Notes under the pieces: model-generated
Database searches by the model: none
What the model saw: only the letters and a program-made list of their open reading frames with translations
Told to the model about the DNA's origin: nothing
Part shown: in pieces, positions 6,215-26,580 of the stretch
How the letters are laid out: each line of letters begins with the position of its first letter
Position numbering within the stretch: the first letter of the stretch is position 1
Assembly (NCBI GenBank): GCA_963739095.1
Contig: CAVTZF010000021.1
Location: 87,842 to 151,841, forward strand
Length of the DNA: 64,000 nt
From: an uncultured Thermoleophilaceae bacterium
GTDB lineage: Bacteria; Actinomycetota; Thermoleophilia; Solirubrobacterales; Thermoleophilaceae
Direction: 5' to 3'
Program-made: the position numbers and the translations under genes

Positions 6215-6314
6215 GCCCGGACCACAACCAAGCAGTGCGGCGCCCGCCCATCCGGCGGGCGCCGCGCATTTGGGGGCTTGCTTCGCGCAGCCCGCTGAGG
6301 TAGTTTGACTGTCG

Positions 6315-6338
6315 TTGACTTTGTGGTCAGTCGCACAA
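6315..6338 (+). promoter_or_regulatory. Copy A of the conserved operator/promoter module (TTGACTTTGTGGTCAGTCGCACAA)
   Basis: TGACTTTGTnnTCAGTCGCA is shared with copies at 9980 and 21664 and lies 13 nt upstream of the EEP gene ATG (6351). This copy lacks the TATCAT -10 seen in the other two. An extra TTGACT is present at 6304-6309. Confidence 0.55.
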
Positions 6339-6350
6339 GGGCGGGCAGGC

Positions 6351-7883
6351 ATGCGAAAGCGGCTCGCCGGGCTGGCCACGCTGGCGGTGGGAGGACTCGC
6401 ACTCCTGACCGGTGGCGCGGTGGGGGCCGCGCCACCGGCGGGTGCGGGCCAATCGGGAAGCTGCGCACCCGGCCGAGCCGGGTGCTCCGCCGAGGAGGCC
6501 GAGCGCGAGCTCACCGTGATGACGTTCAACATCTGGTACGGCGGCGTGCAGGTCGACTTCGCGCAGGTCGCGCGCGCGGTCCGCGAGGCCCGCGCCGATG
6601 TGGTCGGCGTGCAGGAGCCCGAGGGGAACCTGCGCAGGCTCGCCGCGGCGACCGGCATGCCGTACGTCGACGACAGCCTGCACCTGATCTCGCGCTACCC
6701 GCTGTACGCGGTCGGCAGCGGCGCCGACCGCTTCGCATACGTGGCCCTCGACCTCGACCACGTGGCGGCGATCGGCAACGTGCATCTCACCTGCTGCCCG
6801 TACGGGCCCGAGGAGGCGGCCGCGGGCAAGGGGCCGAAACGCGTCCTGCGGCTCGAGCGCTCGCTGCGCCTCCCCGAGATCCGGCCCTACGTGCGCAGGC
6901 TCGGGGGCCTCGCACGGCGGGGTGTGCCGAGCTTCATCACGGGCGACTTCAACTCGCCCTCGCATCTCGACTGGACCGAGGCCGTCGCGCAGGCGCGTCC
7001 CGAGCGCGTCCCCTTCCCGCTCTCCTGGCCGGTGTCGAGCGCTCTCGCTCGCGCGGGCTTCAGCGACTCCTACCGCGTAGCGCACCCCGACCCGGTGGCG
7101 ACCCCGGGTTACACATGGACGCCCGGCACTCCGGCGCCGCGCATCCGCCGCAAGGAGACGCTCGACCGCATCGACTGGGTCATGGCCGGCGGGCGTGCGC
7201 GCACGCTCGCTGCCCGGCTTGTGGGCGAGGCGGGCGGGCCGGATGTCGACGTCGGGCTCGACCCCTACGGGTCGGACCACCGCGCCGTCGCCTCGACCTT
7301 CGCGGTCACGCCCGGGCGCGCTCCGGCGCTCGTGAGCGCCGAGCCGCGCGTCGCATCACGCGGCGAGCGGGTCAGCATCCGCTACACGCAGACGCGCGGC
7401 GGCGCCGGCCGGAAGATCGGGATCCTGCGCGATGGCAAGACGGTGGCCTCGCTCCCGATCTACGACGCGTCCGACCACCTCGCCTCGTACTTCGGCACCA
7501 GGTCGCTGCGCCCCGGCGCCTACCGCGCCGCGCTGCTGGACGGCGACGGCTCGGTCGCGGCGAGCTACAGGTTCTGGATCGAGGCGCCCGGCACGCGGCC
7601 CTCGATCCGCACGACGAGTGCGAGCTACGGCCGCGGCGAGCCGATCCGGCTGCGCTTCGGCGGCGCGCCGGCGAACAAGCTCGACTGGGTCGGGATCTAC
7701 CGAGCCGGCGAGGACGACCTCTACCAGTACTTCGGCTTCAAGTACACGGGAGCGCGCCCGAGCGGCCGCATCAGCTTCACGAAGGCCGACCTCGGGTCGC
7801 TCGCGCCCGGCCGCTACCGAGCCGCGCTCATGCTCGACGACGGCTACACGGTGCTCGCCGACTCGACCTTCCGGGTTCGATGA
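6351..7883 (+). CDS. Secreted endonuclease/exonuclease/phosphatase (EEP) family hydrolase with C-terminal beta-rich repeats
   Basis: Signal peptide MRKRLAGLATLAVGGLALLTGGAVGA. EEP motifs TVMTFNIWYG, DVVGVQE, ITGDFNS, GSDHRAV. Two similar C-terminal segments (PGAYRAALLDGDG / PGRYRAALMLDDG). Confidence 0.8.
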   Translation: MRKRLAGLATLAVGGLALLTGGAVGAAPPAGAGQSGSCAPGRAGCSAEEAERELTVMTFNIWYGGVQVDFAQVARAVREARADVVGVQEPEGNLRRLAAATGMPYVDDSLHLISRYPLYAVGSGADRFAYVALDLDHVAAIGNVHLTCCPYGPEEAAAGKGPKRVLRLERSLRLPEIRPYVRRLGGLARRGVPSFITGDFNSPSHLDWTEAVAQARPERVPFPLSWPVSSALARAGFSDSYRVAHPDPVATPGYTWTPGTPAPRIRRKETLDRIDWVMAGGRARTLAARLVGEAGGPDVDVGLDPYGSDHRAVASTFAVTPGRAPALVSAEPRVASRGERVSIRYTQTRGGAGRKIGILRDGKTVASLPIYDASDHLASYFGTRSLRPGAYRAALLDGDGSVAASYRFWIEAPGTRPSIRTTSASYGRGEPIRLRFGGAPANKLDWVGIYRAGEDDLYQYFGFKYTGARPSGRISFTKADLGSLAPGRYRAALMLDDGYTVLADSTFRVR

Positions 7884-8653
7884 GCGCGGTCCGGACCGAG
7901 GTGCGCGGCCACGTGCTCGAGGTCGTGCTCGACCGTCCCAAGGCGAACGCGATCGACCGCGCCACCGGGCTCGACCTCCACGACGCCTTCGCGCGCCTGC
8001 GCGACGACCCGGAGCTGCGCGTCGGCATCCTCACCGGCGGCGGCGAGCGCTTCTTCTCGGCCGGCTGGGACCTGAAGGCAGCCGCCGCGGGCGAGGAGGA
8101 CACCTCGACGGACTTCGGGCCGGGCGGCTTCGCCGGCCTCACCGAGATGTTCGACCTCGACAAGCCCGTGATCGCCGCCGTCAACGGGCTCGCCGCCGGC
8201 GGCGGCTTCGAGCTCGTGCTGGCCTGCGACCTGATCGTCGCGGCCGACCACGCGGAGTTCTTCCTGCCCGAGCTCAGCCTGGGCATCGTGCCGGACGCGG
8301 GCGGCGCCCAGCGCTTGCCGCGCAGGCTGCCGTGGTTCCTCGCCATGGAGCTGCTGCTGACGAGCCGGCGCATGGGCGCCGAGGAGGCCGAGCGGCGCGG
8401 GCTCGTCTGCGCGGTCGTCCCCGGCGCGCAGCTGATGGACGAGGCGCGCCGGCTCGCCGATCACATCGCGGGCTGCCCGCCGCTCGCCGTCCAGGCCACC
8501 AAGGAGATCATCCGCCGCGGCGAGGGGCTCTCGGTCGAAGAGACGTTCGCCGAGATGGCCGCCGGCCGCTTCTCCGCCTACTCGCGCGCGATCGCGGCCT
8601 CGGAGTTCGTCGAGGGCGCGAAGGCCTTCGCGGAGGGGCGCGCGTCCGAGTAG
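7880..8653 (+). CDS. caiD: Enoyl-CoA hydratase superfamily, CaiD-type (carnitinyl-CoA dehydratase / crotonobetainyl-CoA hydratase-like)
   Basis: LDRPKANAID, ERFFSAGWDLKAAAAGEE, DFGPGGFAGLTEMFDLDKPVIAAVNG, GGGFELVLACD and LGIVPDAGGAQRLP match my recollection of E. coli CaiD closely. ATGA overlap with the EEP gene stop. Confidence 0.75.
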   Translation: MSAVRTEVRGHVLEVVLDRPKANAIDRATGLDLHDAFARLRDDPELRVGILTGGGERFFSAGWDLKAAAAGEEDTSTDFGPGGFAGLTEMFDLDKPVIAAVNGLAAGGGFELVLACDLIVAADHAEFFLPELSLGIVPDAGGAQRLPRRLPWFLAMELLLTSRRMGAEEAERRGLVCAVVPGAQLMDEARRLADHIAGCPPLAVQATKEIIRRGEGLSVEETFAEMAAGRFSAYSRAIAASEFVEGAKAFAEGRASE

Positions 8654-9957
8654 TCGCGCGGCCCGCGGCCGAGCGCCTGCGACGCGGCGTCGCGGCCGGT
8701 GCGGACGGCGCCCTCCATGTAGCCGGCAACCCACTGGTCGGAGCCGCACACGTAGAAGGGCGGCTCGTGGGTGCCGTGCAGCGGGCCGACCGCCATCACG
8801 TCTCCCGGCCGCCAGCCCGTCACGTAGCCCTTCGTGAACGGATCGACGCCCCACGCGCGCGTCCCGTACAGGATCGGGTCGCGCGCCTCATCGCCCATCA
8901 GCGAGGCGAGGAAGTCGAGGAACTCGCGCCGCCGCAGCGGCTCCGGCGTCGCCAGGAAGGGGCCGAGCCGCTCGGGCGGGGTGAGCGAGGAGAGCACGCC
9001 GTCGCGCTGGATCCAGACAGAGCTCCAGACACCGTCCGCGGTCGCGCCGCCGACGTCCCAGAACGAGCTCGGATAGGCGACGACGGTCTTGGCGGCGAGC
9101 GCGCTGCGCTGGCGGTGGAGCGACTCGAGCCGCGCCTCCGACACGCCGCTCACCATCACGTCGCGCAGCGGTCCAACCGGCAGCGCGCAGACCACCGTCT
9201 CGGCCTCGATCCGCTCGCCGTTGCGCAGGAAGGCCGTGCAGCGCGACGAGGTGACGCCTAGCGCGACCACGACGCTGCCGAGCCTGACGCGATCGCCGAG
9301 CTCGTCCGCCATGCGCAGCGCCACCGTCGCCGACCCCTCCGCCACGCGCAGGTGCTCCCAGCGGCTCTCCTCGTAGAAGCCGTGGGCGCCGGCGGTCGCC
9401 TCCTTGCGCAGCTGCGCCAGCAGCGACGTGCGCTCGACCGAGTCGATCGAGAGCGAGCGCTGCATGTGGTCGAGGTAGCGGATCGCGCCCGGGCGTGCGT
9501 GCTGCGAGCGCAGCCAGGCGCCCATGCTCAGCAGGTCGAGCCGCTAGGCGTCCGGGTGACTCCAGGGATCGCCAGGGTCGACGGTGCCCGCGAGCCGGGC
9601 GAACTCGTCCTCGAGCCGGGCGAGGTCGGCCTCGTCGGCGTCGTCCATCCAGGGCGCGCGCTCGCCGATCGACACGCCCTCGTCGGCGCCCCAGGCGGGC
9701 GGCAGGTCGATCGCCGTGTAGCTGGGCTCGAGCCTCAGGCCGAGCTCTCCCACGAGCTCGGCGTAGGCGTGCATCCAATCGGCGACGACCTCGCCGCCCC
9801 ATTGCACCGGGCGCCCGTCGGCGAGGAAGACCTGCTCGACGCGGCCGCCCGGGCGCTCGCGCGCCTCGAGGACGACCACATCGGCGCCGCCCGCAGCCAG
9901 ATCGCGCGCCGCGGACAGGCCGGCGAGTCCAGCCCCAAGCACGATCACGTCATGCAC
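8578..9957 (-). pseudogene. Flavin-containing amine oxidase (putrescine/monoamine oxidase-like), interrupted by an in-frame TAG at 9544-9546
   Basis: N-terminal part MHDVIVLGAGLAGLSAARDL..VVVLEARERPGGRV (FAD dinucleotide fold) ends ..WSHPDA*. It then continues in the same frame as RLDLLSMGAWLRS...YVCGSDQWVAGYMEGAVRTG (track ORFs 9544..9957 and 8578..9525; 9543-9525 = 18 nt). Confidence 0.8.
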
Positions 9958-9979
9958 GCCGGTAAGTCTAAACGACTCT

Positions 9980-10009
9980 TTGACTTTGTAGTCAGTCGCA
10001 CGATATCAT
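9980..10009 (+). promoter_or_regulatory. Copy B of the conserved module: -35 TTGACT, 18-nt conserved spacer, -10 TATCAT. Predicted leaderless promoter of the aminotransferase gene.
   Basis: TTGACT(9980-9985)-TTGTAGTCAGTCGCACGA-TATCAT(10004-10009), with the ATG at 10018 only 8 nt after the -10. Lies in the 60-bp divergent region shared with the amine oxidase gene. Confidence 0.6.
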
Positions 10010-10017
10010 CGCCGAGC

Positions 10018-11403
10018 ATGGATTCGAACGGCCATGCGAGCAGCCTCTCCCAAGACGCCCTCCGCCATCTCTGGCTCCACTTCACGGGCATGGGAGACCT
10101 GGACGCAGACGAGCTCCAGATCATCGTCCGTGGCGAGGGCTGCTACCTCGAGGACGCGCAGGGCAAGCGCTATCTCGACGCGCTCGCCGGCCTCTTCTGC
10201 GTGAACGCCGGCTACAGCTTCGGTGCCGAGATGGGCGAGGCGGCCGCCCAGCAGATGCGCGAGCTGCCCTTCGCGATCAACTGGACCTTCGCGCACCCGC
10301 GCTCGATCGAGCTGGCCGCCGAGCTCGCCCGGCTCGCGCCCGGCGATATCAACCGCTCCTTCTTCGTGAGCGGCGGCTCCGAGGCGGTCGAGGCCGCCTG
10401 GAAGCTCGCCCGCCAGTACCACACCGCCCGCGGTGAGCGGCGCTGGAAGGCGATCGCGCGGCGCGTTGCCTACCACGGCACGACTATGGGCGCGCTCTCG
10501 ATCAACGGCTGCACGGAGCTGCGCACGCCCTTCGAGCCGCTCGTGCCCGACGTCCTGCACGTGTCGAACACGAACAGCTACCGGCGCCCCGTGGACGAGA
10601 GCGAGGAGGAGTTCACGAGCTTCCTGCTCGACGAGCTCGAGCAGATGATCGTCCACGCCGGCCCCGAGACCGTCGCGATGGTGATCATGGAGCCGGTGCA
10701 GAACGCGGGCGGCTCGTTCATGCCGCCCGCCGGCTACTGGGCGGGCGTGCGCGAGCTCTGCGACCACCACGGCATCCTGCTGTGCGCGGACGAGGTGATC
10801 ACCGCCTTCGGGCGGCTCGGCCACTGGTTCGCGTCCGAGCGCTACGACATCCGCCCCGACATGATCACCACCGCGAAGGGCCTCTCGTCGGCCTACGCGG
10901 CGATCGGCGCGCTGCTCGTGAGCGACCGCGTGATGGAGCCGTTCGAGCAGCCGGGTTCGATGTTCACTCACGGCATGACCTTCGGCGGCCACCCGGTGCA
11001 GGCGGCGGTGGCCCTCAAGAACATCGAGATCATGCGGCGCGAGCGCATCGTCGAGAACGTCGCGGAGCGCCAGGACGAGTTCCACGCCGCCCTCAGCCGA
11101 CTGCTCGAGCTGCCGATCGTCGGCGACGTGCGTGGCTCGGGCTATTTCTACGCGCTCGAGCTTGTGAAGAACTCCGACACCCGCGAGAGCTTCACGAGCG
11201 AGGAGTGCGACGAGCTGCTGCGCGGCTTCCTCTCCCCCGAGCTGTTCAAGCGCGGGCTGATCTGCCGCGCGGACGACCGCGGCGATCCCGTCATCCAGAT
11301 CTCGCCGCCGCTCGTCGCCGGGCCGGAGGAGTTCGACAAGATCGTCGAGGTCCTGGGCGGGGCGCTCGAGGAGGCAAGCGAAAGGATGTCGGTGGCGCGA
11401 TGA
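10018..11403 (+). CDS. Class-III (omega) aminotransferase, PLP-dependent
   Basis: FFVSGGSEAVEAAWKLAR, ILLCADEVITAFGRLG, DMITTAKGLSSAY (Schiff-base Lys) and THGMTFGGHP are typical of putrescine/beta-alanine/GABA-type transaminases. Confidence 0.85.
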   Translation: MDSNGHASSLSQDALRHLWLHFTGMGDLDADELQIIVRGEGCYLEDAQGKRYLDALAGLFCVNAGYSFGAEMGEAAAQQMRELPFAINWTFAHPRSIELAAELARLAPGDINRSFFVSGGSEAVEAAWKLARQYHTARGERRWKAIARRVAYHGTTMGALSINGCTELRTPFEPLVPDVLHVSNTNSYRRPVDESEEEFTSFLLDELEQMIVHAGPETVAMVIMEPVQNAGGSFMPPAGYWAGVRELCDHHGILLCADEVITAFGRLGHWFASERYDIRPDMITTAKGLSSAYAAIGALLVSDRVMEPFEQPGSMFTHGMTFGGHPVQAAVALKNIEIMRRERIVENVAERQDEFHAALSRLLELPIVGDVRGSGYFYALELVKNSDTRESFTSEECDELLRGFLSPELFKRGLICRADDRGDPVIQISPPLVAGPEEFDKIVEVLGGALEEASERMSVAR

Positions 11404-13040
11404 GCGGCCTCAATGGATCGGGCGGCTACGACGCGATCGTCGTAGGCGGCGGCCACAACGGGCTCACCGCCGCCGCCTACCTGTCGCGCGCGGGCATGCG
11501 CGTCTGCGTGCTCGAGCGGCGCGACATCCTCGGCGGCGCCTGCGTGACCGAGGAGGTGTGGCCCGGGCAGCGCGTCTCGCGCGCCTCGTACGTCGTGTCG
11601 ATGCTGCAGCCGAAGGTCGTCGAGGAGCTGCGGCTGCACGACTTCGGCTACCAGCCGATCCCGCTCGACCCGGCCTTCGGGACGATCACGCCCGACGGCG
11701 TACCGGCATTCTTCTTCAACGACGCCGAGCGAACGCGCGAGTCGATCGCCCGGCTCTCGCGCCGCGACGCGCAGCGCTACCCCGACTTCGAGGAGATGCT
11801 CGCGCGCATGGCGGGCTTCCTGCGCCCGCTGATGCTGCGGCCGCCCCCGGCGCTCGGCTCGAAGCGCCCGGGCGATCTGCTCTCGCTGCTGCGCGAGGCC
11901 GGCCGCACCGCCGGGCTCGCGCGCCGGGACGTGCTCGAGCTGTTCCGAGTGATGACGATGTCGGTCGGCGACCTGCTCGACGAGTGGTTCGAGTCGGACG
12001 TCCTCAAGGGCGCCTGGGCCTCGACCGGCGTGGTCGGCGTCTGGGCCGGGCCCCGCACGCCGGGGACGGCGTACAACCTGCTCCACCACGCGCTCGGCGA
12101 GCTCGACGGCGTGAGCGGCCTCTGGGGCCACGTGCGCGGCGGCATGGGCGCCATCTCGCAGGCGATCGCGCGCAGCGCGGAGGCCTCGGGAGCCACGATC
12201 CGGACCGGCGCGCCGGTGCGCTCGATCGACGTGGAGAGCGGCCACGTGACCGGCGTGACGCTCGAGAGCGGTGAGGAGATACGCGCCCCGCTCGTCCTGT
12301 CGGGCGCGCACCCGCGCACGACGATCCTCGAGCTGGCCGGCAGGCAGCACTTCCCTGACGAGGTCGTGCACGACATGGAGCGCTTCCGCTCGCGCGGAGG
12401 CTCGGTCAAGGTCAACTGCATCCTCTCCGAGGCGCCGCGCTACGAGGGAGTCTCAAGCGAGGAAGGCGAGCTCCTGCTGCATACCGGGGTCGCGCTGTGC
12501 CCGTCGGTCGACTACCTCGAGCGCGCCTGGCAGGACGCCACGCGCGGCGTGCCGGCCGAGGGCCCCTACGTGGAGGTGGAGCTGCCGAGCACCGTCGACG
12601 ACAGCCTCACCGACGACGGCACCTTCGTGATGACGCTGTTCACGCAGTACGGGCCGTACGACGAGGCCGGCTGGCCCGAGGGCTCGCGCGAGGCCTACGG
12701 ACAGCGCTGCCTCGACATCGTCGCCCGCCACGCGCCCAACGTGAAGGACGCGCTCGTCCACCACGAGGTGCTGGCGCCGCCCGACCTCGAGCGCATCTTC
12801 GGGCTCGTGGACGGTTCGATCTTCCAGGGCGAACAGGGGCTCGAGCAGATGGCGTTCATGCGCCCCTCGCCGCTGCTCGCGCAGTACGCGACGCCGGTCG
12901 ACGGCCTCTACCTGTGTGGCGCCGGCACGCACCCGGGCGGCGGCGTGATGGCCGCCTGCGGGCACAACGCCGCGATGCGGGTGCTGAAGGACCGGCGCGG
13001 CGGTCTGCGCGGGCGCGTGCGCCGCGCCGTCGCTAGCTGA
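11400..13040 (+). CDS. FAD/NAD(P)-dependent oxidoreductase, phytoene-desaturase (CrtI)-like family
   Basis: YDAIVVGGGHNGLTAAAYLSRAGMRVCVLERRDILGGA (Rossmann fold) and C-terminal GLYLCGAGTHPGGGV. ATGA overlap with the aminotransferase stop. Confidence 0.8.
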   Translation: MSGLNGSGGYDAIVVGGGHNGLTAAAYLSRAGMRVCVLERRDILGGACVTEEVWPGQRVSRASYVVSMLQPKVVEELRLHDFGYQPIPLDPAFGTITPDGVPAFFFNDAERTRESIARLSRRDAQRYPDFEEMLARMAGFLRPLMLRPPPALGSKRPGDLLSLLREAGRTAGLARRDVLELFRVMTMSVGDLLDEWFESDVLKGAWASTGVVGVWAGPRTPGTAYNLLHHALGELDGVSGLWGHVRGGMGAISQAIARSAEASGATIRTGAPVRSIDVESGHVTGVTLESGEEIRAPLVLSGAHPRTTILELAGRQHFPDEVVHDMERFRSRGGSVKVNCILSEAPRYEGVSSEEGELLLHTGVALCPSVDYLERAWQDATRGVPAEGPYVEVELPSTVDDSLTDDGTFVMTLFTQYGPYDEAGWPEGSREAYGQRCLDIVARHAPNVKDALVHHEVLAPPDLERIFGLVDGSIFQGEQGLEQMAFMRPSPLLAQYATPVDGLYLCGAGTHPGGGVMAACGHNAAMRVLKDRRGGLRGRVRRAVAS

Positions 13041-13506
13041 GCTCGGCGATCACGTCCTTTGAGTGGGTGATCGGCAGGCGGTTGCCCTCGAGCTCGATCC
13101 GCGACCCGCTGGCGCTCTCGATCAACTCGAGCACGCGCACGTTGACGCGCTGGTGCACCTTCACCTCGATGCCTTCGCGCGGCACGCGGAAGACGAGCTC
13201 CTTGACGTGGCGCCGGTTCCCCGAGAAGCCGTAGACCATCGTCCCCGAGACGCCGACGATCATCTGCTCGGGCAGCCCGCTCGCGGCGTCGTGCGCCCGC
13301 GTGCCCGCCACGTAGCCGCCGGCCGTGCCCACTCCACCCGCAACCCCGCCGATCGAGTCGCCGAGATCACCGCCGATCAAGCCCCCGGCGAACCCGGCGC
13401 CGGTGTGGCCACGCGGGTAGAACTCGCCGACCGCCGTCACCGCGTCCTCGATTCCCGCGGAGGCGAGCGCCTCGTTGACGACCTCGACCATGTTCTCCTC
13501 GGACAT
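13033..13506 (-). CDS. Hypothetical protein (157 aa) with a Gly-rich central segment
   Basis: ORF with strong G/C third-position bias; no family recognised. Confidence 0.5.
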   Translation of the reverse strand: MSEENMVEVVNEALASAGIEDAVTAVGEFYPRGHTGAGFAGGLIGGDLGDSIGGVAGGVGTAGGYVAGTRAHDAASGLPEQMIVGVSGTMVYGFSGNRRHVKELVFRVPREGIEVKVHQRVNVRVLELIESASGSRIELEGNRLPITHSKDVIAELS

Positions 13507-13528
13507 GCGGTCGTTGTAGCACGTCGTA

Positions 13529-13556
13529 GCCCCGCGCCGCCTGAGCGGCGCGGGGC
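13529..13556 (-). terminator. Perfect 12-bp GC hairpin (GCCCCGCGCCGC-ctga-GCGGCGCGGGGC), likely an intrinsic terminator for the gene ending at 13575
   Basis: Read directly from the sequence, 19 nt downstream of the minus-strand stop. No U-tract, which is common in high-GC actinobacteria. Confidence 0.55.
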
Positions 13557-13574
13557 TTCAACCAGTGAGGACTC

Positions 13575-15157
13575 CTAGAACGTCTGCAGCAGGCAGAGCC
13601 CGGCCGTGCCCGGGTCCAACCGGTACTGCGTCGCGACCTGGGCCAGGAATGCGCGCTGGCGCTTCGACGGCGCGGGCGCCGACACCTCCCTGCCGCTGGC
13701 GCGGGCCACCTTGGCCTTGCCCGTCAGCTTCAGCACGTCCACGCCGCGCGTGCGGTCCGCGGTGTAGACGTAGCCGTCGTGCAGGTAGGAGGCCCAGACA
13801 ATGCCGTCGTCAGGCCGCCAGTAGGCGAACTGCGTGGGGTTCTCCGGATCGGAGATGTCGAGGAAGCGCGTCCCCTCTCCGTACCAGGCGTAGCTCACCG
13901 TGCCGCCGTCCACGTCGAAGTAGTGGGCGGAGCAGAAGTCGGCGAGCGGGTCGTACTCCCCGGTCGGGCGTGAGCCCTCCTTCTGGTACGGGTTCCACGT
14001 GCCCACGGCCCTGAGCCGGAACTTGTTCCCCGGCCGCGAGCGCCAGGCCTCGCCGCCGTAGCTGCCCTTGAGCGAAGCGATCGTGAACTGACCGCGCTTC
14101 GAGCAGCCCTCCTCGGCGGGGCCGAAGTCCTCCTCGGTCGCGAGCAGCAGCTCGCCCTTGCGGTAGCGCGAGTCGCCCTTCGGCGCGGTGCGCCCGACGG
14201 GCCGCCAGGCGTTGTGCTCGAAGCCGCCGTTCTCGTCGCCGACCACGGACGCCGGCAGCCCGCCGCCCCCGTACGGGATCGGGTCGAGCGGCGTCGCGGT
14301 GCGGACGCGCTGGTCGAACGAGTCGTAGTGCCGACCGCTCGTGTGGTAGCCGCGCGTGCCGCCGTCTCCGGACACCCAGGCGATGCCCGCGGCGTCAACC
14401 TGGACGTCGTGCGAGTAGGCGGTGAAGCCGTCGCGCCGGAAGAGGTCGACCGGATCCATCGGATACGCGACCGGGGTTGCCGGATTGCGCAGGTCGGTCA
14501 CGATGATCGGCCGGCCGAAGGTCCAGCCGTTCGCCACGTCACCAGTCACGGGAGTAGTCGTGCTCGCCGGGCCGCCGGTCCACAACCACTGGCAGTCGTT
14601 GACGCAGGTGGTGGTGTGCCCGGTCGGCAGCTGCTGGAAGGAGCGAAGCGACAGCGCGCTTGGGTCCTTCGCGTCCACGACGTAGACGCCGGCGATGTTG
14701 GTCGCCCCGTTGGGGTCGGGGTCGCCGGGCTCACGCGACGTCGAGCCCGCGTACGCGCGCGGATCACGCGACAGCAGCGCGAGCTTACGGCTCTGGTCGA
14801 CGTCCATGTCCTCGTTCTGCCAGAACGTCGAGATCGGCCCTGCGGCCTCGTCGGTGTTGACGGGGGGGTCGCCCGGCAGTCGCAGCTCCTCGGCCGTGAT
14901 CTCGTCGAGCAGCTCCGGATGGGCCGGGTCGTCGAGCGAGTACGACTTGAGCCCGAAGCGCCCGGTCACGAGCATGACGTCGGACTTGCCCTTGCCATAG
15001 CTCATGAAGTTGATCGCCGTGGCGTCCTCGGCCTCCGGCCCAGGTGGTCCAGCAGCTCGACGTTCTTCGACGCGTCCGCGCCGAACGCGGGCGCGGCGAT
15101 GACAAGCAATGCGGCCACCAGCGCTCCATAGGCCGCAAGTACAGCTCTCCTCCGCAT
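13575..15157 (-). pseudogene. Secreted beta-propeller-like protein with LVIVD-like repeats (tentative). The signal-peptide exon is separated from the body by one frameshift near 15036-15041.
   Basis: Body is track ORF 13575..15005, with motifs GVYVVDAKDPSAL, PIIVTDLRNPATP, TRFLDISDPENPT, GVDVLKL. Upstream in another frame I read MRRRAVLAAYGALVAALLVIAAPAFGADASKNVELLDHLG. That joins to PEAEDATAINFMSYGKG if one C is added in ccggccc. GGAGGGA SD before the ATG at 15157. Confidence 0.6.
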
Positions 15158-15225
15158 GGGGTCCCTCCAGTAGAAGACGGTCCGCCTGGGGGCACCCCTA
15201 CCCAGTTGAGGGGCCTAGTGCACCT

Positions 15226-16308
15226 TTAGCGCAAGACGAGCGCGTGTTCTGGGCGCCAGCCGAGCTTGACCCGGTTACCGATCTCCCAGCGGTCGTCGGA
15301 GCGGGCGCGGACCCAGTTCTGCTCCAGCGCCATCAGCCGCATGCCTGGCGCGAGCTCGACGATTATCTGCGTGCTCGTGCCGACGTAGACGCGCTCCACG
15401 ACGGTCCCTTCGACCGTGACCATGCCCTGCTCGATCTCGTCGTCGATCGCGATCTTCTCGGGGCGCACGGAGAGCTGGACCTCCGAGCCGGCGGCGCAGT
15501 CGGCCGGCACCTGCGCGTCGCAGACGATGCCCTCGGCCAGCCGCACGGAGCCGTTCTCGCATACGCCCGGCAGCAGGTTCGAGACCCCGATGAAGCCCGC
15601 GACGAAGGGCCCGACCGGGTGCTCGTAGATGTCCTCCGGCGTACCGCACTGCTTGATCAGGCCGGCGTCCATCACCGCTATCCGATCCGACATCGCGAGC
15701 GCCTCCTCCTGGTCGTGGGTCACGTACAGGAACGTGATCCCGACCTCGCGCTGGATGCCCTTGAGCTCGACCTGCATCTGCTTGCGCAGCTTGAGGTCGA
15801 GCGCGCCCAGCGGCTCGTCGAGGAGCAGCACCGACGGGCGGTTGACGAGCGCGCGGGCGAGCGCCACGCGCTGCTTCTGACCGCCCGAGAGCTCGCCCGG
15901 GCGCGCGTCGCCGCGCTCGTGCATCTCGACGAGCTCAAGCGCCTCGGCAACGCGTCGGCGGATCTCGTCCTTCTCGACCTTGCGGCGCTTGAGGCCGAAG
16001 GCGACGTTGTCCTCGATCGACAGGTGCTCGAAGAGCGCATAGCTCTGGAAGACCGTGTTGACGTTGCGCTCGTACGGGGGCACGGTCTCGACGGACTCGC
16101 CCTCGAGGAAGATGCGGCCCTGGCTCGGCTGCTCGAAGCCTCCGACCATGCGCAGGGTCGTCGTCTTGCCGCAGCCCGACGGGCCGAGCAGCGAGAAGAA
16201 CTCACCGCGCTCGATCTCGAGGTTGAGGTCGTCGACCGCCACGGCCTCGCCGAAGCGCTTCGTCACTCCTTCGAAGCGGATGGCCGAGCCAGCCCCGTTC
16301 TCACTCAT
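15226..16308 (-). CDS. potA: Spermidine/putrescine-type ABC importer, ATP-binding subunit
   Basis: Walker A GPSGCGKTT, signature LSGGQKQRVALARAL, Walker B LLLDEPLGALD, and a PotA/MalK-type C-terminal regulatory domain. Confidence 0.85.
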   Translation of the reverse strand: MSENGAGSAIRFEGVTKRFGEAVAVDDLNLEIERGEFFSLLGPSGCGKTTTLRMVGGFEQPSQGRIFLEGESVETVPPYERNVNTVFQSYALFEHLSIEDNVAFGLKRRKVEKDEIRRRVAEALELVEMHERGDARPGELSGGQKQRVALARALVNRPSVLLLDEPLGALDLKLRKQMQVELKGIQREVGITFLYVTHDQEEALAMSDRIAVMDAGLIKQCGTPEDIYEHPVGPFVAGFIGVSNLLPGVCENGSVRLAEGIVCDAQVPADCAAGSEVQLSVRPEKIAIDDEIEQGMVTVEGTVVERVYVGTSTQIIVELAPGMRLMALEQNWVRARSDDRWEIGNRVKLGWRPEHALVLR

Positions 16309-17195
16309 TCGGCTTCCCTCCCGAGCAGCACCTTGAGCCCGCTCTCCTTGCGTCCGAACAGGCGCGGCAGCAGCAGCGCCAGGCCGATGGACACCACGGA
16401 GATCACGAGCATGAAGGTGCCGATCGCGTTGATCGTCGGCCTCACGCCGAACCTGATTTGCGTCCAGATGCGCACCGGCAGCGGCTGCGGCGACTCGCCG
16501 GTGGTGAAGAACGACAGCACGAAGTCGTCAAACGACAGCGCGAATACGAGCAGGCCCGCCGCGAGCACCGCGGGCCAGAGCGCGGGCAGCGTCACAAGGC
16601 GGAACGTCTGCCAGCGCGTGGCGCCCAGGTCCATCGACGCCGACTCGACCTCCCGGCCGAGCGACGCCAGCCTCGCCCGCACCACGACCGTCACGTATGA
16701 GATCGAGAAGGTGATGTGGGCGAGGATGATCGTCGTGATCGAAAGCTCGAGCCCGATCTGCGTGAACAGCAGCAGCGCCGACGCGCCGGCGACGATCTCG
16801 GGGGTCACGAGCGGCACCAGCATCATGATGTTGGCCCCGTTCGACCAGCGCGTACGCGAGCGCACGAGCCCGTAGGCGAGCAGCGTGCCGAGCACCGTCG
16901 CGACCACCATCGTGATGAGCGCGATCTCGATGCTCGCTATCAGCGAGTCGCGCAGCGATTCGGACTCGAAGAACGTCTCGTACCAGCGCAGGCTGAAGCC
17001 GTCGAAGTTCTGCAGCGAACGGCTCGAGTTGAACGAGAACAGGATCACGAGCACGATCGGCACGAACAGGACGACGAAGAAGAGCCCGACGAAGACCTTG
17101 AGGAAGCGCGGGCGGTCGAAGTCCTTCGGCGGCTTGGTGCGCGCGGGGCGGGTCGTGGCCGGCGCGGTGGGGGTCGGGGCGACGTCGGTGCTCAT
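16305..17195 (-). CDS. potC: ABC importer permease (PotC-like)
   Basis: Six-TM BPD-transporter permease with an EAA-like loop (ASMDLGATRWQTFRLVTLP). Overlaps its neighbours by 4 nt. Confidence 0.75.
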   Translation of the reverse strand: MSTDVAPTPTAPATTRPARTKPPKDFDRPRFLKVFVGLFFVVLFVPIVLVILFSFNSSRSLQNFDGFSLRWYETFFESESLRDSLIASIEIALITMVVATVLGTLLAYGLVRSRTRWSNGANIMMLVPLVTPEIVAGASALLLFTQIGLELSITTIILAHITFSISYVTVVVRARLASLGREVESASMDLGATRWQTFRLVTLPALWPAVLAAGLLVFALSFDDFVLSFFTTGESPQPLPVRIWTQIRFGVRPTINAIGTFMLVISVVSIGLALLLPRLFGRKESGLKVLLGREAE

Positions 17196-18025
17196 GCCTC
17201 CGCCTCCCGCGCCTCGCGCGCCGCCGAGCGCAGGTAGAGCGACATCCAGATCAGCAGGAAGGCCATCAGCACCACGGTCAGCGCGGCGCCGAAGGGCCAG
17301 TTGTCAGAAGCCTGGAACTGCTGCTGGATGAGGTTGCCGATCATCACGTCCTCCGGCCCGCCGAGCAGCGAGGCGGACACGAAGTCGCCAACGGCCGGCA
17401 GGAAGACGAGCACCGAGCCCGCCAGCACGCCCTGGATGCTGTGCGGCAGCGTCACGTGCCGGAACGTCTGCCAGGGGCCGCCGTAGAGATCCTTGCCCGC
17501 CTCGATCAGCGACCGGTCCATGTTGTCGAGGGAGGCGAAGATCGGCAGGATCATGAACGCGAGGAAGCCGTAGACGAGCCCGCCGATGACCGCGTAGGGC
17601 GTGTTGATGAAGCGGATGCTCGAGTCGAACAGGCCGTTGACGAGGCCGTCGTCGCCGAGCATCGCGATCCAGGCGTACGTGCGGATCAGGTAGTTGACGA
17701 AGAACGGCAGCACGACCAGCGCCAGCAGCACGTTCTTCCAGCGCCCGCCGAAGATCGCGATGTAGTAGGCCACCGGATAGCCGATCAGCAGGCAGATCAC
17801 GACGGTGGCCAGGGCGAAGCCGACCGAGCGGACCAGCACCGGGATCAGGTCGGCGTCGAAGACGCGCTCGTAGTTCGTGAACTCGAACCCGTAGATCGCC
17901 TCGCCGAGGTCGTCGGTGTGGCCGAACGAGATCGCGAGCAGGAAGACCAGCGGTACGACGAACAGCGCCAGCAGCCAGAGGCCGCCGGGGATCAGGAAGC
18001 TCGAGGAGAAGCGGTTGTCGTTCAT
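17192..18025 (-). CDS. potB: ABC importer permease (PotB-like)
   Basis: BPD-transporter permease with an EAA loop (EAGKDLYGGPWQTFRHVTLP). Operon position between the binding protein and PotC. Confidence 0.75.
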   Translation of the reverse strand: MNDNRFSSSFLIPGGLWLLALFVVPLVFLLAISFGHTDDLGEAIYGFEFTNYERVFDADLIPVLVRSVGFALATVVICLLIGYPVAYYIAIFGGRWKNVLLALVVLPFFVNYLIRTYAWIAMLGDDGLVNGLFDSSIRFINTPYAVIGGLVYGFLAFMILPIFASLDNMDRSLIEAGKDLYGGPWQTFRHVTLPHSIQGVLAGSVLVFLPAVGDFVSASLLGGPEDVMIGNLIQQQFQASDNWPFGAALTVVLMAFLLIWMSLYLRSAAREAREAEA

Positions 18026-18032
18026 GTCCCCG

Positions 18033-19181
18033 CTAGGAGACCCTGAACTCGGTCCAGACCTTGTCCCACGCCAGCCGGCCCTCCCCCTTCAGGTTCTCGA
18101 ACTGCTGACCGTTCTCGAGGTCCTCGGTGGTCACGTTGATCTCAGGGTCGTCCTTGACGAGGCCCTGGAAGGCCTCGGTCGGAGCGCCCTCGTACGGCAT
18201 CGGGTAGCCGATCCACTCGACGTTCTGGGCGGCGTGCTCGGGCTGGAGCATCCACTCGATGAACAGCAGCGCCGTGCCCGGGTGCTTGGAGTTGACCGGG
18301 ATGCAGAAGTTGTCGCTGCCGACCGGGATCCCCTCCTTGCACTTCTGGAACTTGAAGTCCTCGGGGTTGTCGACCGTGTTGCGGATGTTGACGATGTCGC
18401 CGTTCCAGAGGTGCTGGATCCAGGCGTTGCCGCTCGTCATGTTCGTGATCGTGTCCGTCGAGATGCCGCGCAGCTTCGGCTTCAGGTTCACGAGGTAGTC
18501 GAGTGACTTCTCGAGCTTGGCCTCGTCGACCTCGTTGAGCGGGTAGCCGTTGACCAGGTTGGCCATGCCGATGGACTCCTGGTAGTCGTCGAGCAGGAAG
18601 CTCTTGTCGTCCGAGTCGACGTCGCCGAGGTCGAGCCACGAGCCGGTCATCCCGGTGACCTTGTCGGCGCGGTAGCCGAGACCGGTCGCGTACATCCCGT
18701 AGGGCGTGCTGTGCTCGGAGTCCTTGTCGTACCAGGGGTTCGCGAAGTAGTCGTAGACGGTGTCGATGTTCTTGATCTTGTCCCGGTCGATCCGGCGCAC
18801 CAGATTGCCCGAGATCAGGCGCTGCACGTACTCACCGCTCGGGAAGATCAGGTCGTAGGCGATGCCGGCGCGCAGCTTGGCCGTCATCGCCGACATCCCA
18901 TCGAAGTACGACTCGCGCACCTGCACCCCGTACTTCTTCTCGAAGCCCTTGACGAGCGCGGGGTCGATGTACTCGGAGTAGTTGAAGTAGAGGAGGTCGC
19001 CGTCGACCTTCTTCGCGATCGGCTTCTCCGTGTCTTCCTTGCTGCCGCCGCCCGCGTTCCCCACGCCGCAGCCGGCGAGCCCGGCGATCAACGCCATCGC
19101 CGCGCCGTTCTGCAGCAGGTCCCTGCGGCCGATGCGCCGCTCGAGCGCGCGCCTCAGGCGTTGCTCGTCGTACTCCTTCAC
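18033..19181 (-). CDS. potD: Polyamine-type (PotD/PotF family) extracellular solute-binding lipoprotein
   Basis: Lipobox LIAGLAGCG and PotD/F-like length and motifs (FNYSEYIDP..., WNGD). First gene of the transporter set. Confidence 0.75.
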   Translation of the reverse strand: MKEYDEQRLRRALERRIGRRDLLQNGAAMALIAGLAGCGVGNAGGGSKEDTEKPIAKKVDGDLLYFNYSEYIDPALVKGFEKKYGVQVRESYFDGMSAMTAKLRAGIAYDLIFPSGEYVQRLISGNLVRRIDRDKIKNIDTVYDYFANPWYDKDSEHSTPYGMYATGLGYRADKVTGMTGSWLDLGDVDSDDKSFLLDDYQESIGMANLVNGYPLNEVDEAKLEKSLDYLVNLKPKLRGISTDTITNMTSGNAWIQHLWNGDIVNIRNTVDNPEDFKFQKCKEGIPVGSDNFCIPVNSKHPGTALLFIEWMLQPEHAAQNVEWIGYPMPYEGAPTEAFQGLVKDDPEINVTTEDLENGQQFENLKGEGRLAWDKVWTEFRVS

Positions 19182-19206
19182 CTCAAGGCCTCCCCCACTC
19201 GCGCTT

Positions 19207-19824
19207 TCATGCGGGCGCCTCCACGGCGTCCGGCAACGTGCACCCGAGCTCGCGCTCCGCCAGCGTCACGGCGAGCTCACGCACACGGCCCGGAGTGACC
19301 TCCGCGTCTCGCAGCGCAACCTGCACAGACAATCCGTCGAGTAGCGAGCCCATCAGGACGGCGAACCGCTCCGGGTCAGCTGGACCGAACTCGCCGCGCT
19401 CCTGACCGTAGCTGACGACGTCGGCAATGGTTCGCCGCCAGCGGGCGTCGAGCTCCGCGCGCGTCTCGGCGAGCTGCTCGTCGCGCAGCGCCTGTGCCCA
19501 CAGCTCCATCCACAGCGCCGCGTCGTAGTCGCCCCCGGCGGCACCCCATTCGACGATCACTGCCAGGCGCTCGACCGCGCTCTCGATGCCGTCGATGCGC
19601 GTCGCCAGATCCTCGTAGAAGCGCTCCTCGGCCGACGTGAGCGCCTCGTTGAGCAACTCCGCCTTCGACGAGAAGTAGTAGAGCACCGATGGCGCGCTCG
19701 TCCCGGCCTCCTTGGCCACGTCGGCAACACGCGCGCCCGTGAGCCCGCGACGCCTGATCACGTTCGCGGCGGCCTCGAGCAGCTCAGGCCGGCGCACGTG
19801 ATCGAGGCGCGGCCTCGGGCTCAT
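19207..19824 (-). CDS. TetR/AcrR-family transcriptional regulator (TetR-1)
   Basis: HTH region RPELLEAAANVIRRRGLTGARVADVAKEAGTSAPSVLYYFSSKAELL. ATG at 19824 preceded by GGGAGGG, preferred over the TTG at 19893. Ends 25 nt upstream of potD. Confidence 0.85.
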   Translation of the reverse strand: MSPRPRLDHVRRPELLEAAANVIRRRGLTGARVADVAKEAGTSAPSVLYYFSSKAELLNEALTSAEERFYEDLATRIDGIESAVERLAVIVEWGAAGGDYDAALWMELWAQALRDEQLAETRAELDARWRRTIADVVSYGQERGEFGPADPERFAVLMGSLLDGLSVQVALRDAEVTPGRVRELAVTLAERELGCTLPDAVEAPA

Positions 19825-19872
19825 CCGGTCACCCTCCCAGAGTAACTTGAACGACGATTCAGGAAACCTATC

Positions 19873-19889
19873 CGCCCGGACGCCGGGCG
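19873..19889 (-). terminator. Small GC hairpin (CGCCCGG-acg-CCGGGCG) immediately after the TetR-2 stop; weak terminator or attenuator candidate
   Basis: 7-bp stem read from the sequence, with no U-tract. Confidence 0.25.
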
Positions 19890-20543
19890 TCAAGTTCCCG
19901 TTTCGGCACGAGCGCGTACGCGCTGGCCGCCGAGCGGCGGCGGCGGCTCGTCCGGAAGCCCGAGCTCGTCGGCGAGCCCGGCCCAGACTTCACGGCGGGC
20001 GTGCTCGATGTCGAGGTCCCCGATCAGCACGCGCGCGCCGTAGCCGTCGGCGAGCGCGATGAGCCGGTCGGCCATCCGAACGGGGTCCGCGTCCGCCTTG
20101 AACGCGCCTTCGCTGATCCCTGCCGCGATCCCCTGCGCGACCCAGTCGCGCATGCGCCCGTATAGGCGCTCGCCGGTCGGGCGCATCTCCGGATGGCGCG
20201 CGGCGCGCAGCCACAGCTCGACGTACAGGATCCAGTCCTTCCGCAGGTGGCCCGGGTAGGGCAGGAACTGGTCGATCTCGCCCGCGAGCCGCTCGAAGTG
20301 GTCGGATGCCTCTCCCTCTCCCTCGCCGATGCGCACGTCTCCGGTCAGCTCGTACGAGTACTCGAGCGCCTCGGCCAGCAGCGCCTCGCGCGTCTCGAAG
20401 TGGTAATGGACGAGCGACGTCGAGACGCCCGCTTGGGTGGCCACGCGCGCGATGCGCATGTCGTCTATGCCGTCCGTCGCGATTCGGTCGACCGCCGCGG
20501 CCAGGATCCGCTCCCGTGCGCCGCGTTCGGGAGGGTCGCTCAC
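19890..20543 (-). CDS. TetR/AcrR-family transcriptional regulator (TetR-2)
   Basis: The C-terminal part of track ORF 19890..21377 reads ERILAAAVDRIATDGIDDMRIARVATQAGVSTSLVHYHFETREALL (HTH). The GTG at 20543 overlaps the Rieske gene stop (GTGA). Confidence 0.85.
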   Translation of the reverse strand: MSDPPERGARERILAAAVDRIATDGIDDMRIARVATQAGVSTSLVHYHFETREALLAEALEYSYELTGDVRIGEGEGEASDHFERLAGEIDQFLPYPGHLRKDWILYVELWLRAARHPEMRPTGERLYGRMRDWVAQGIAAGISEGAFKADADPVRMADRLIALADGYGARVLIGDLDIEHARREVWAGLADELGLPDEPPPPLGGQRVRARAETGT

Positions 20544-21655
20544 CCGTCCTCGCCGAGGTCGGCGCGGATCCGGTCCGCGAACCAGCCCACCGCTGCCTCG
20601 CGCCGCGACAGCGGGCCCGGCTCGAAGCCATGCGTTGCGATGCCGGCCTGCTGGTTCGCCACGAGGTCGACGTCCTCGTCGCTGACCAGCTCGTTGATCC
20701 TGCGGTTCGCGAGCCGCACGGCGCGCGTCTTCACGCTCCCGCCCCGCGGCTGCAGCGTCATGGCGACGTCCTGGGTCGCGCCGGTGCCCTTCGGCAGGAT
20801 CTGCCAGATCCCGATCTGGTCCGGATAGAGGTCGATCGTCGTGTTCGGATAGATCAGGATGAAGCGCCAGACGCGCGCGTCCTCGGGACCCAGCCCTGGC
20901 ATCGGCTCGACGAGCCGCTGGTAGGTCCGCTCGAGGAAGTTGCCTGACGGCTTCTCGCGCATTGGCGCGTCGAACCACACCCAGTTGTCGAACAGCTCGA
21001 CGTCGTAGTTCTTGTAGTCGAGCAGCCGCATCAGGCCGGGATGGCCGACGGGCACGTGGTAGCCCTCGAGGTAGTTGTCGATGACGATCTTCCAGTTGGC
21101 CGGCTGGCTCGTCCCCTTCTCGACGACGGGCATGAGGCTCTCGAAGCCGTAGCGGGCAAGCCGTTCCGGGAGGCCGGCGACCTGCTCGGCGAGCGGCGTG
21201 GCGTGGATGTCGAGGTTGACGAACACGAGCCCGAGCAGGACCTCGACGCGCGCGGGGAAGAGCCCGAGCGCCGACTTGTCGAGGCCGGGGATCTGGCGCC
21301 CCTCGGGCACGCCGATCAGCTCGCCGTCCATGCGGTAGGTCCAGCCGTGGTAGCGGCAGCGAATTGCCTTCTTGCACTCGCCCGAGCCGCTCAGGAGACG
21401 CGAGCCGCGGTGCCGGCAGACGTTTCGGAAGGCGCGCAGCTCGCCCTCGTCGTCGCGGACGACGAGCACCGGCTGGGTACCCGCGTTGGCGGTCAGGTAG
21501 GTCCCGGGACCCGGCAGCTGTGAGACGTGGCCGGCGAACTGCCAGGTGCGTGAGAAGATGCGCTCGTCCTCGAGCTGCAGGACCTCGGGATCGAGGTAGA
21601 GATGCGGCGAGAGCGCGGGCGAGACGGGCGCTGGAGCGGTCTTCGATGAGGCCAT
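20540..21655 (-). CDS. Rieske [2Fe-2S] non-haem-iron oxygenase, alpha-subunit type (GbcA/CntA/Stc2-like N-demethylase/monooxygenase class is possible)
   Basis: Rieske motif CRHRGSRLL...CRYHGWTY. The catalytic domain carries NYLEGYHVPVGHP (2-His iron site). Start taken at ATG 21655 (AGGA 8 nt upstream); ATGs at 21685 and 21736 are alternatives. Confidence 0.8.
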   Translation of the reverse strand: MASSKTAPAPVSPALSPHLYLDPEVLQLEDERIFSRTWQFAGHVSQLPGPGTYLTANAGTQPVLVVRDDEGELRAFRNVCRHRGSRLLSGSGECKKAIRCRYHGWTYRMDGELIGVPEGRQIPGLDKSALGLFPARVEVLLGLVFVNLDIHATPLAEQVAGLPERLARYGFESLMPVVEKGTSQPANWKIVIDNYLEGYHVPVGHPGLMRLLDYKNYDVELFDNWVWFDAPMREKPSGNFLERTYQRLVEPMPGLGPEDARVWRFILIYPNTTIDLYPDQIGIWQILPKGTGATQDVAMTLQPRGGSVKTRAVRLANRRINELVSDEDVDLVANQQAGIATHGFEPGPLSRREAAVGWFADRIRADLGEDG

Positions 21656-21663
21656 TAGCAATC

Positions 21664-21693
21664 CTGACTTTGTGATCAGTCGCATGATATCAT
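21664..21693 (+). promoter_or_regulatory. Copy C of the conserved module: -35 CTGACT, 18-nt conserved spacer, -10 TATCAT. Predicted promoter of the small-ORF/acyl-CoA operon.
   Basis: CTGACT-TTGTGATCAGTCGCATGA-TATCAT. The first candidate start (TTG 21700) lies 6 nt after the -10. ATGATATCAT is itself palindromic, so a -10 can be read on both strands. Confidence 0.6.
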
Positions 21694-26542: not shown

Positions 26543-26580
26543 GCGCGGCTCCATCCGGCGCACAGGCTTTGCTCTCACGG

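Follow-up and report, generated by a model that had tools for sequence, protein, structure and literature searches.

What joins a set of genes for amine and acyl-CoA metabolism into one regulated group, and by which protein such a group would be controlled, are the questions raised by a 64,000-nucleotide stretch of contig CAVTZF010000021.1 from an uncultured Thermoleophilaceae bacterium (this whole stretch is called the window throughout), in which a 20-bp element occurs three times at the start of such genes. As judged from its conservation and placement, the element is almost certainly a dedicated cis-regulatory site. It is probably bound as an operator by a TetR-family repressor encoded nearby, the best candidate being the protein here called TetR1, which would act as an amine-responsive auto-repressor of five transcription units.

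Within the window, the pattern TGACTTTGTRRTCAGTCGCA has exactly three matches against a chance expectation of 0.01 estimated from shuffled sequences, and none of 100 shuffles gave three matches of the 20-mer. The sites of TGACTTTGTNNTCAGTCGCA lie at positions 6316-6335 (copy A), 9981-10000 (copy B) and 21665-21684 (copy C), all on the + strand and all without mismatch, and no further copy is present in the 64 kb even if up to three mismatches are tolerated. A weight matrix derived from relatives that had been collected by protein homology recovered the same three sites as the only ones above 12 bits (45.9, 33.7 and 29.4) in this DNA of 72% G+C, with copy C as the top-scoring site of the window. 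The variation among copies A (TGACTTTGTGGTCAGTCGCA), B (TGACTTTGTAGTCAGTCGCA) and C (TGACTTTGTGATCAGTCGCA) is confined to two positions, which are always purines and specific for the class of site, namely GG in A, AG in B and GA in C. Copy A is an exact match with the same geometry in ten orthologous A-type sites, copy B contains the perfect dyad TGACT-TTGT-AGTCA and is located inside a 60-bp gap between divergent genes, and copy C is located inside a divergent gap of 44 bp. The initial annotation of this DNA had reported three + strand copies with 18 of 20 positions invariant and had named the genes that follow them; all three copies were found again exactly where they had been placed, and one pattern fits them with no mismatch. 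It had also spoken of three linked transcription units, of which the linkage by a shared module stands and the number does not, since B and C sit in divergent gaps and the units are consequently five.

An exact scan with the 20-mer, covering one genome per species for 185,579 species (596 Gb), returned 94 stretches, 90 of them from Thermoleophilaceae, Solirubrobacteraceae and related metagenome-assembled genomes. Counted as sites, 95 exact matches are distributed over 63 Thermoleophilia species genomes, with one site in 37 genomes, two in 20 and three, the maximum, in 6; sites on the same contig all point the same way and are separated by no more than 16.5 kb. The four matches outside the clade, in Microbulbifer, a cyanobacterial endosymbiont, Micavibrio and one further bacterium, have central bases that are not purines, and the island genes are not present beside them.

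The neighbours of the sites were assigned by tblastn with the proteins of the window, the orthologous proteins being mostly 45-98% identical (over tblastn pieces, a few of them weaker). C sites have a Rieske oxygenase gene on one side and a small open reading frame (ORF) on the other in 60 of the 63 orthologous sites scored. B sites, with 24 orthologous sites scored, have the gene of the flavin amine oxidase AOX1 as left neighbour in 17 and an aminotransferase gene as right neighbour in 20, and A sites are followed by the gene of a secreted endonuclease/exonuclease/phosphatase-family (EEP) protein in six of seven, the seventh being cut by the end of the locus. Gene order is changed in four loci (L016, L078, L082 and L088), yet the motif stays with the same genes. 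Beyond the motif and the promoter hexamers, no conservation of the non-coding DNA was found among the fetched loci. These loci (793 kb) together with the window contain 102 exact sites, two with one mismatch, two with two mismatches and none with three or four; by class, and with the window's own included, there are 64 C-type sites (63 + 1), 25 B-type sites (24 + 1) and 10 A-type sites.

The conservation of the motif, its restriction to one gene set and the geometry of the promoters around it are direct observations. A copy number of at most three per genome in combination with the same orthologous neighbours argues for the operator of a regulon and against a general promoter consensus or a dispersed repeat, and the scans, of the 64 kb as well as of the species genomes, rule out both of the latter. 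The occurrence of the motif at many unrelated promoters, which had been named beforehand as the outcome that would speak against a regulatory site, was looked for and came out negative, as the sites are nearly always beside the same orthologues; comparative genomics in 63 species strongly supports the proposal of a shared regulator site that overlaps promoters and is confined to the island.

Additional, slightly degenerate copies of the operator were noticed in Solirubrobacteraceae and other relatives, all on the - strand (L017 around position 6128, L095 around 16352 and L173 around 11415). The copy in L095, TGACCTTGTAGTCAGTCGCA, precedes another FAD amine oxidase gene. These additional copies imply that membership of the regulon varies between lineages.

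As an exact scan forces invariance on the sites it collects, loci were also gathered through homologues of TetR1, that is, not via the motif. In these TetR1-anchored loci the site was found in the expected place, 23 times exactly, 6 times with one mismatch, 7 times with two, 9 times with three and 4 times with four. The protein-anchored core reads tCC-TGAcTTTGT-RR-TCAgTyG, in which TGA-N8-TCA is invariant in 44 protein-anchored sites and the central TTGT is invariant as well, while the GCA at the right end is replaced in distant clades by TGAT, TGCT or TGTT. Symmetry is highest for (Y)TGAC(T)-N4-(A)GTCA(R), and copy B shows it without deviation. The palindrome GACT-N8-AGTC, which the initial annotation had pointed out, turned out to be less conserved than TGA-N8-TCA extended to TGAC(T)-N4/6-(A)GTCA. 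Neither that palindrome nor a longer dyad that includes GCA is supported by the protein-anchored sites. The homologue searches reached relatives with at least 55% identity to TetR1, and no clade whose operator is truly different was among these. In its sequence, the element has the attributes of a TetR operator, as it is a pseudo-palindrome in the range of 14-30 bp, overlaps the core promoter or the start, and is present at the unit of the regulator itself.

How the element is placed with respect to promoters differs between the sites. At B and C, a promoter scanner scored TTGACT/CTGACT-18-TATCAT as sigma-70-like, in line with the earlier interpretation of the two ends of the element as -35 and -10 hexamers; it fails at A, where GGGCGG occupies the -10 spacing, as the shorter copy A given in the initial annotation had already suggested. 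At C, the palindrome ATGATATCAT (21684-21693, both strands) provides two opposed TATCAT -10 hexamers, each with TGn in front, and TGn precedes the -10 hexamers of both strands in the majority of C sites, that of the window included. All 64 C sites have TANNNT on the + strand at motif positions +23 to +28 and equally on the - strand at positions 24 to 19 (TATCAT in 60, TAACAT in 4), and in 58 of the 64 a GTG or ATG codon follows 7-9 nt past the -10. The geometry of the B sites is like that of C, with CGATAnnnT. In the window the promoter scan places overlapping opposed -10 hexamers of B at 10000-10009, the + strand hexamer being TATCAT (10004-10009) and the - strand hexamer TATCGT, read from 10000-10005 in reverse complement; of the 25 B sites, 84% have a + strand TANNNT and 21 have one on the - strand (TATCGT in 20), and ATG is found 7-10 nt past the -10 in 21.

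By actinobacterial convention, a transcript is leaderless when the start codon lies about 6-9 nt after a TANNNT -10 hexamer (Actinobacteria leaderless convention, PMC3898074), and with a start codon 7-9 nt past the -10 the transcript that leaves C on the + strand, C(+), would be leaderless; that of B(+), with its ATG 9 nt past the -10, would be leaderless or nearly so. Since the two -10 hexamers overlap by 2 bp, divergent start sites are predicted 23 bp apart, a spacing which, next to 10 and 18 bp, is one of the three common classes among bacterial bidirectional promoters (PMC12825309). B and C thus have the sequence layout of bidirectional promoters with symmetrical -10 hexamers and predicted start sites. 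These would fall near 21700 and 21677 for C, and at 10016-10018 and near 9993 for B. As the operator occupies the spacer of a + strand promoter whose -10 overlaps the opposed -10, one bound protein would shut both units. The conserved TCC to the left of the C sites (TCCT, positions -3 to 0) corresponds, on the opposite strand, to the AGGA that is the Rieske gene's ribosome-binding site and mostly stands 5-8 nt ahead of its start codon.

Site A, on the other hand, has a separate upstream promoter, predicted at 6278-6306 on the + strand with the -35 hexamer TTGCTT (6278-6283), a 17-nt spacer and the -10 hexamer TAGTTT (6301-6306). A strict sigma-70 scanner did not call this promoter of unit A; the arrangement TTGCTn-N17-TAnnnT is shared by most of the ten A-type loci, with the -10 ending 7-10 nt (mostly 8 nt) before a TTG codon. 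Copy A extends from about +2 to +22 relative to the start site, which is predicted at 6313-6315, and spans the EEP start codon and the first seven codons. The TTG is at motif positions -1 to +1 and 7-10 nt past the -10 in 10 of 10 A-type loci, and in the same ten the EEP frame is open from this TTG into the signal peptide, with the conserved N-terminus MTLWSVAQ. Several of these loci have no other in-frame ATG or GTG start, and a stop codon stands 1-6 codons upstream. Besides the window, A-type sites were observed in L006, L014, L037, L039, L041, L051, L062, L066 and L093.

EEP accordingly appears, by the reading of its frame, to start at the TTG inside the operator, and this codon is possibly a leaderless UUG start. 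As a leaderless start, UUG is unusual. ATG 6351 is a possible second EEP start in this genome only, and the assignment of AAGGG/AAGGAG after site A as its ribosome-binding site was dropped, because the ten orthologous loci place the start of the frame at the motif TTG. Because site A has its own upstream promoter and no -10 of its own behind the element, the likeness of TTGACT to a -35 hexamer is at least partly incidental to the operator half-site. An element that stands in the spacer at B and C but downstream of the start at A behaves as a repressor site and not as a sigma-factor element or an activator site.

Two TetR-family proteins are encoded in the unit that leaves C on the - strand, C(-), namely TetR1 (19890-20543) and the BetI-like TetR2 (19207-19824/19893), both with the Pfam domains TetR_N (PF00440) and TetR_C_6 (PF13977); autoregulation is probable as this unit carries its own copy of the site. 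Both had been named as candidate binders in the initial annotation, and of the two TetR1 is the better candidate. The TetR1 gene is found directly after the Rieske gene in 45 of the 48 C sites with enough flank and, in a 46th, with one gene between; the two remaining C loci without an adjoining TetR1 gene belong to Solirubrobacteraceae. In one Solirubrobacteraceae genome the TetR1 gene is directly beside a motif copy (L016), and the Rieske locus of the same genome (L080) keeps a copy of its own. The recognition helix of TetR1, GVSTSLVHYHF, is invariant in 78 orthologues. In three orthologues with GASTALVHHYF the operator core is altered at positions 3, 4 and 14 (TGAyCTTGTAGTCAATCGCA), a weak hint that helix and operator may co-vary at these positions, and no co-variation of the helix with operator positions 16-19 was found. 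From this pattern we infer that TetR1 is the likely binder and would act as a repressor.

The structural model of TetR1 (predicted local distance difference test, pLDDT, 84.7) shows a canonical TetR fold with 10 predicted helices, nine of the core and a short C-terminal one of low confidence, and TetR proteins make up all of its 50 best structural matches. The nearest solved relative, with 33% identity and a template modelling (TM) score of about 0.75-0.84, is a regulator of Saccharomonospora viridis (4kwa, 4nel, 4jnn, 4ich), the structures of which hold choline, a dimethyl-amine compound or benzamidine. It is followed by AmvR of A. baumannii (8wp7), with 27% identity, which was crystallised with spermidine. 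What these two regulators have in common with TetR1 is a near fold, in their case with small cationic amines as ligands; they are not orthologues of TetR1, and their PDB entries carry generic names, with no operator or targets listed. No characterised close relative of TetR1 was found in the NCBIfam or solved-structure searches. By analogy with the S. viridis protein and AmvR, we infer a ligand of the same class for TetR1, and the amine-bound nearest structures fit the amine oxidases, the aminotransferase, the CntA/GbcA-like oxygenase and the polyamine-type transporter as targets.

Among described operators, the box of RutR, the TetR-family regulator of pyrimidine catabolism in E. coli, with the consensus TTGACCAnnTGGTCAA (PMC2475637), is similar in being a 16-bp pseudo-palindrome with TGAC and GTCA 6 bp apart that is bound by a TetR-family protein. 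Site A of the window (TTGACTTTGTGGTCAG) fits 11 of the 14 specified positions, B and C fit fewer, and genuine RutR sites, TTGACTGGCTGGTCAG among them, closely resemble the window operator. However, TetR1 is no orthologue of RutR: it has no match to any RutR model, and TetR2 has only a weak match to TIGR03613 (36 bits against a cut-off of 368) that is restricted to the DNA-binding helices; the pathway is another one, and in the element described here the TTGT centre and the 3' GTCGCA are invariant and the site is embedded in core promoters. The resemblance to the RutR box therefore looks to be one of architecture, not of membership.

A second comparison concerns BetI, the choline-responsive TetR repressors that recognise ATTGACG*CGTCAAT in the divergent betT/betIBA or betI2/betTA regions (PMC12442346). 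The BetI-type C-terminal domain (TetR_C_6), the half-site TTGAC/GTCAA, the location of the operator in a divergent promoter region that includes the operon of the regulator, and target genes for amines or quaternary amines are shared features. In contrast, the half-sites are separated by N6 here and by N2 in the BetI box, the scores with TIGR03384 are 36.8 bits for TetR1 and 85.9 bits for TetR2 against a cut-off of 201.3, with the NCBIfam BetI-like match of TetR2 below cut-off, and the targets are not betA, betB or betT. The assignment of TetR1 or TetR2 as a BetI orthologue thus failed on model score and operator spacing. The bidirectional acrA/acrR promoter provides a third parallel, with opposed overlapping -10 hexamers and a local TetR auto-repressor, AcrR, that represses both directions, its own gene included (PMC12825309); differently from it, the + strand transcripts considered here would be leaderless, one operator is reused at three loci, and the start sites are predicted.

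The proposed mechanism is that, without inducer, TetR1 would occupy, as a dimer, the pseudo-dyad (Y)TGAC(T)-N4-(A)GTCA(R). The operator of B and C would fill the spacer of the + strand promoter and cover the start site of the opposed - strand promoter, whereby one bound dimer would block RNA polymerase both ways, and at A, where it would lie at about +2 to +22 over the TTG start codon of EEP, initiation or promoter escape would be blocked. The regulon would consist of EEP and the enoyl-CoA hydratase as a first unit, the amine oxidase AOX1 as a second, the aminotransferase with the FAD oxidoreductase as a third, the Rieske oxygenase, TetR1, TetR2 and a polyamine-type ABC transporter as a fourth, and the small ORF, acyl-CoA dehydrogenase, acyl-CoA synthetase and amine oxidase AOX2 as a fifth. 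A small cationic amine, choline-, carnitine- or polyamine-like, would free TetR1 from the DNA and switch on all five units, including the one that encodes TetR1.

Several observations weigh against this proposal. The operator is strongly asymmetric, its 18 invariant positions go far beyond what one TetR dimer usually needs, and the dyad leaves the central TTGT and the GTCGCA extension, which is invariant within Thermoleophilaceae, unexplained. Operator positions 16-19 vary in distant clades with a constant TetR1 recognition helix, and the co-variation at the other positions rests on 3-5 loci. TetR2 may be the binder or a co-binder. Moreover, the genome scan, being an exact-match scan, is biased in its ascertainment, and weaker sites may exist elsewhere; all organisms that bear the motif are represented by metagenome-assembled genomes.

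There is a modest chance that the element is more than a simple operator. Overlapping codes could be packed into its 20-23 bp, these being the TetR dyad, the spacer or discriminator of a pair of opposed extended -10 promoters, the Rieske gene's AGGA ribosome-binding site, and the leaderless UUG with the first seven codons of EEP; alternatively, a second protein, be it TetR2 or another TetR1 dimer, could contact the asymmetric GTCGCA arm. If it does, the class-specific purine pair in the centre (GG, AG or GA) could determine the order in which the units are derepressed.

That TetR2 alone binds the element, or TetR1 and TetR2 together as two dimers or a mixed complex with GTCGCA as the contact of the second protein, is unlikely. 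The genes of two BetI-like TetR proteins, which adjoin each other in the window and at 26 of the 44 related C loci whose flanks are long enough, the asymmetry of the element and its length beyond the minimal TetR dyad of 14-16 bp would suit such an arrangement, and systems with two BetI proteins are known (PMC12442346). TetR2, however, is present at only those 26 of 44 loci and thus absent from about 40% of the clusters, in which the 20-mer and the B-type sites are unchanged (for example L052); its recognition helix is less conserved than that of TetR1, and no separate conserved site for TetR2 was seen. A mixed complex as the source of the asymmetry is weakened by the same absence of TetR2 from about 40% of the clusters.

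It is improbable that the regulator is encoded elsewhere, be it an alternative sigma factor, a protein of GntR type or one of another kind, and that the linkage with the TetR genes is mere synteny. In its favour, the connection between protein and element is drawn from sequence alone, and half-sites like TGGTCA occur in the operators of other regulator families. The motif nevertheless goes with TetR1 where the latter is split from the Rieske gene (L016 versus L080), the position of the element relative to the -10 differs between A and B/C, which does not suit a sigma factor, and no genome has more than three copies.

A strong shared promoter composed of -35, spacer and -10, without a dedicated regulator, would account for the sigma-70-like scores of B and C, but is very improbable. 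Promoters of the sigma-70 type need no fixed spacer sequence, and here the spacer bases are invariant; site A has the element without a following -10 and with an upstream promoter of its own, and the motif is found at no other promoter of the 64-kb window and at most three times in a genome. The least credible proposal, an element that acts as RNA (a leader structure or riboswitch) or a small mobile repeat, draws on the motif being part of the transcript at A and of the minus-strand transcripts at B and C. It is dismissed, with the RNA element rejected outright, as the whole window has no Rfam match at gathering threshold, the folds of the transcribed versions are weak (z-scores of -0.3, -2.2 and -1.3, shuffle-like or with stems of only 4-7 pairs), the motif of B and C is upstream of the + strand start site, and the similarity ends within about 30 bp, has no terminal repeats and is fixed in position to the same genes.

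With respect to the genes under the proposed control of TetR1, which were called by third-position G+C and then assigned with Pfam and NCBIfam, unit A (6315-8653, + strand; Pfam Exo_endo_phos and ECH_1) comprises the secreted EEP protein, from TTG 6315 (or ATG 6351) to 7883, and the enoyl-CoA hydratase (7880-8653). On the - strand side of B, unit B(-) is the flavin amine oxidase AOX1 (8578-9957), with Pfam Amino_oxidase on both halves. Its codon 138 is an in-frame TAG (9546-9544) where seven orthologues read GAG or GCG, which is either a nonsense mutation, making the gene a pseudogene, or an assembly error. Unit B(+) (10018-13040, + strand) encodes a class-III omega-aminotransferase (10018-11403) and a CrtI-like FAD oxidoreductase (11400-13040), both identified by Pfam and NCBIfam.

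The first gene of unit C(-) encodes the alpha subunit of a Rieske oxygenase of CntA/GbcA type (20540-21655, - strand; Pfam Rieske and Ring_hydroxyl_A), whose best solved relative is carnitine monooxygenase (6y9c) and whose best NCBIfam match, GbcA, is below cut-off. After the two TetR genes follow, by Pfam and all on the - strand, a PotD-like binding protein (18033-19181), two permeases (17192-18025 and 16305-17195) and a transporter ATPase (15226-16308), together a PotABCD-like transporter, then a secreted protein with no assigned function (13575-15156, frameshifted in the window) and, at the end of the unit, a 157-amino-acid protein likewise with no assigned function (13033-13506). Co-transcription of this remainder of C(-) (13033-19181) with the upstream genes is suggested solely by short or overlapping gene junctions. 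The secreted protein, called with 476 amino acids, is really one of about 526, as, in the region 15005-15156 of the - strand, the ORF with the signal peptide begins in another frame at ATG 15156; the frameshift of about 1 nt is near 15040 in the window, and orthologues read through it (...ASKNVELLD...ATAINFMSYG...). Judging by the fragmented tblastn matches seen in a number of related genomes, errors of this kind seem to occur often in these assemblies.

Unit C(+) begins on the + strand with the putatively leaderless small ORF (21700-22050) and continues, by Pfam, with an acyl-CoA dehydrogenase (22047-23243), an ADP-forming acyl-CoA synthetase (23247-25346), the flavin amine oxidase AOX2 (25343-26542) and, probably in the same unit, a TMEM175-like channel (26569-27177). 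The small ORF encodes a conserved protein of 116 amino acids with a basic tail, starts with TTG in the window and with GTG in nearly all relatives, and its stop codon shares bases with the start codon of the acyl-CoA dehydrogenase gene (ATGA). The small ORF has no match in Pfam, NCBIfam or PDB, and solved-structure searches with it, the 476-amino-acid protein and EEP gave no informative match. A homologue of the TMEM175-like potassium channel also follows C(+) in many relatives (for example L013, L036, L046, L055, L056 and L090), where it is an odd partner for catabolic genes.

A full-text literature search combining the clade with TetR retrieved no relevant paper on regulators of Thermoleophilia. 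The type of circuit is well known, with a local TetR repressor, a pseudo-palindromic operator, divergent autoregulation and a bidirectional promoter, and mechanistically it is a standard TetR-type circuit that changes no concept. It is unusual that 18 positions show next to no variation in at least 63 species, that the element is so strongly asymmetric, and that an operator coincides with the apparent leaderless UUG start and initial codons of the gene for a secreted protein. The compact, leaderless bidirectional promoter of 44-60 bp with one operator might be put to use as a tight, portable switch in high-GC hosts, and the 20-mer, with four off-clade matches in 596 Gb, is a very specific metagenome marker for this amine/quaternary-amine catabolic island. 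For the uncultured soil Thermoleophilia, the element provides a sequence-defined regulon with an operator, a candidate repressor, five units and a predicted class of ligand.

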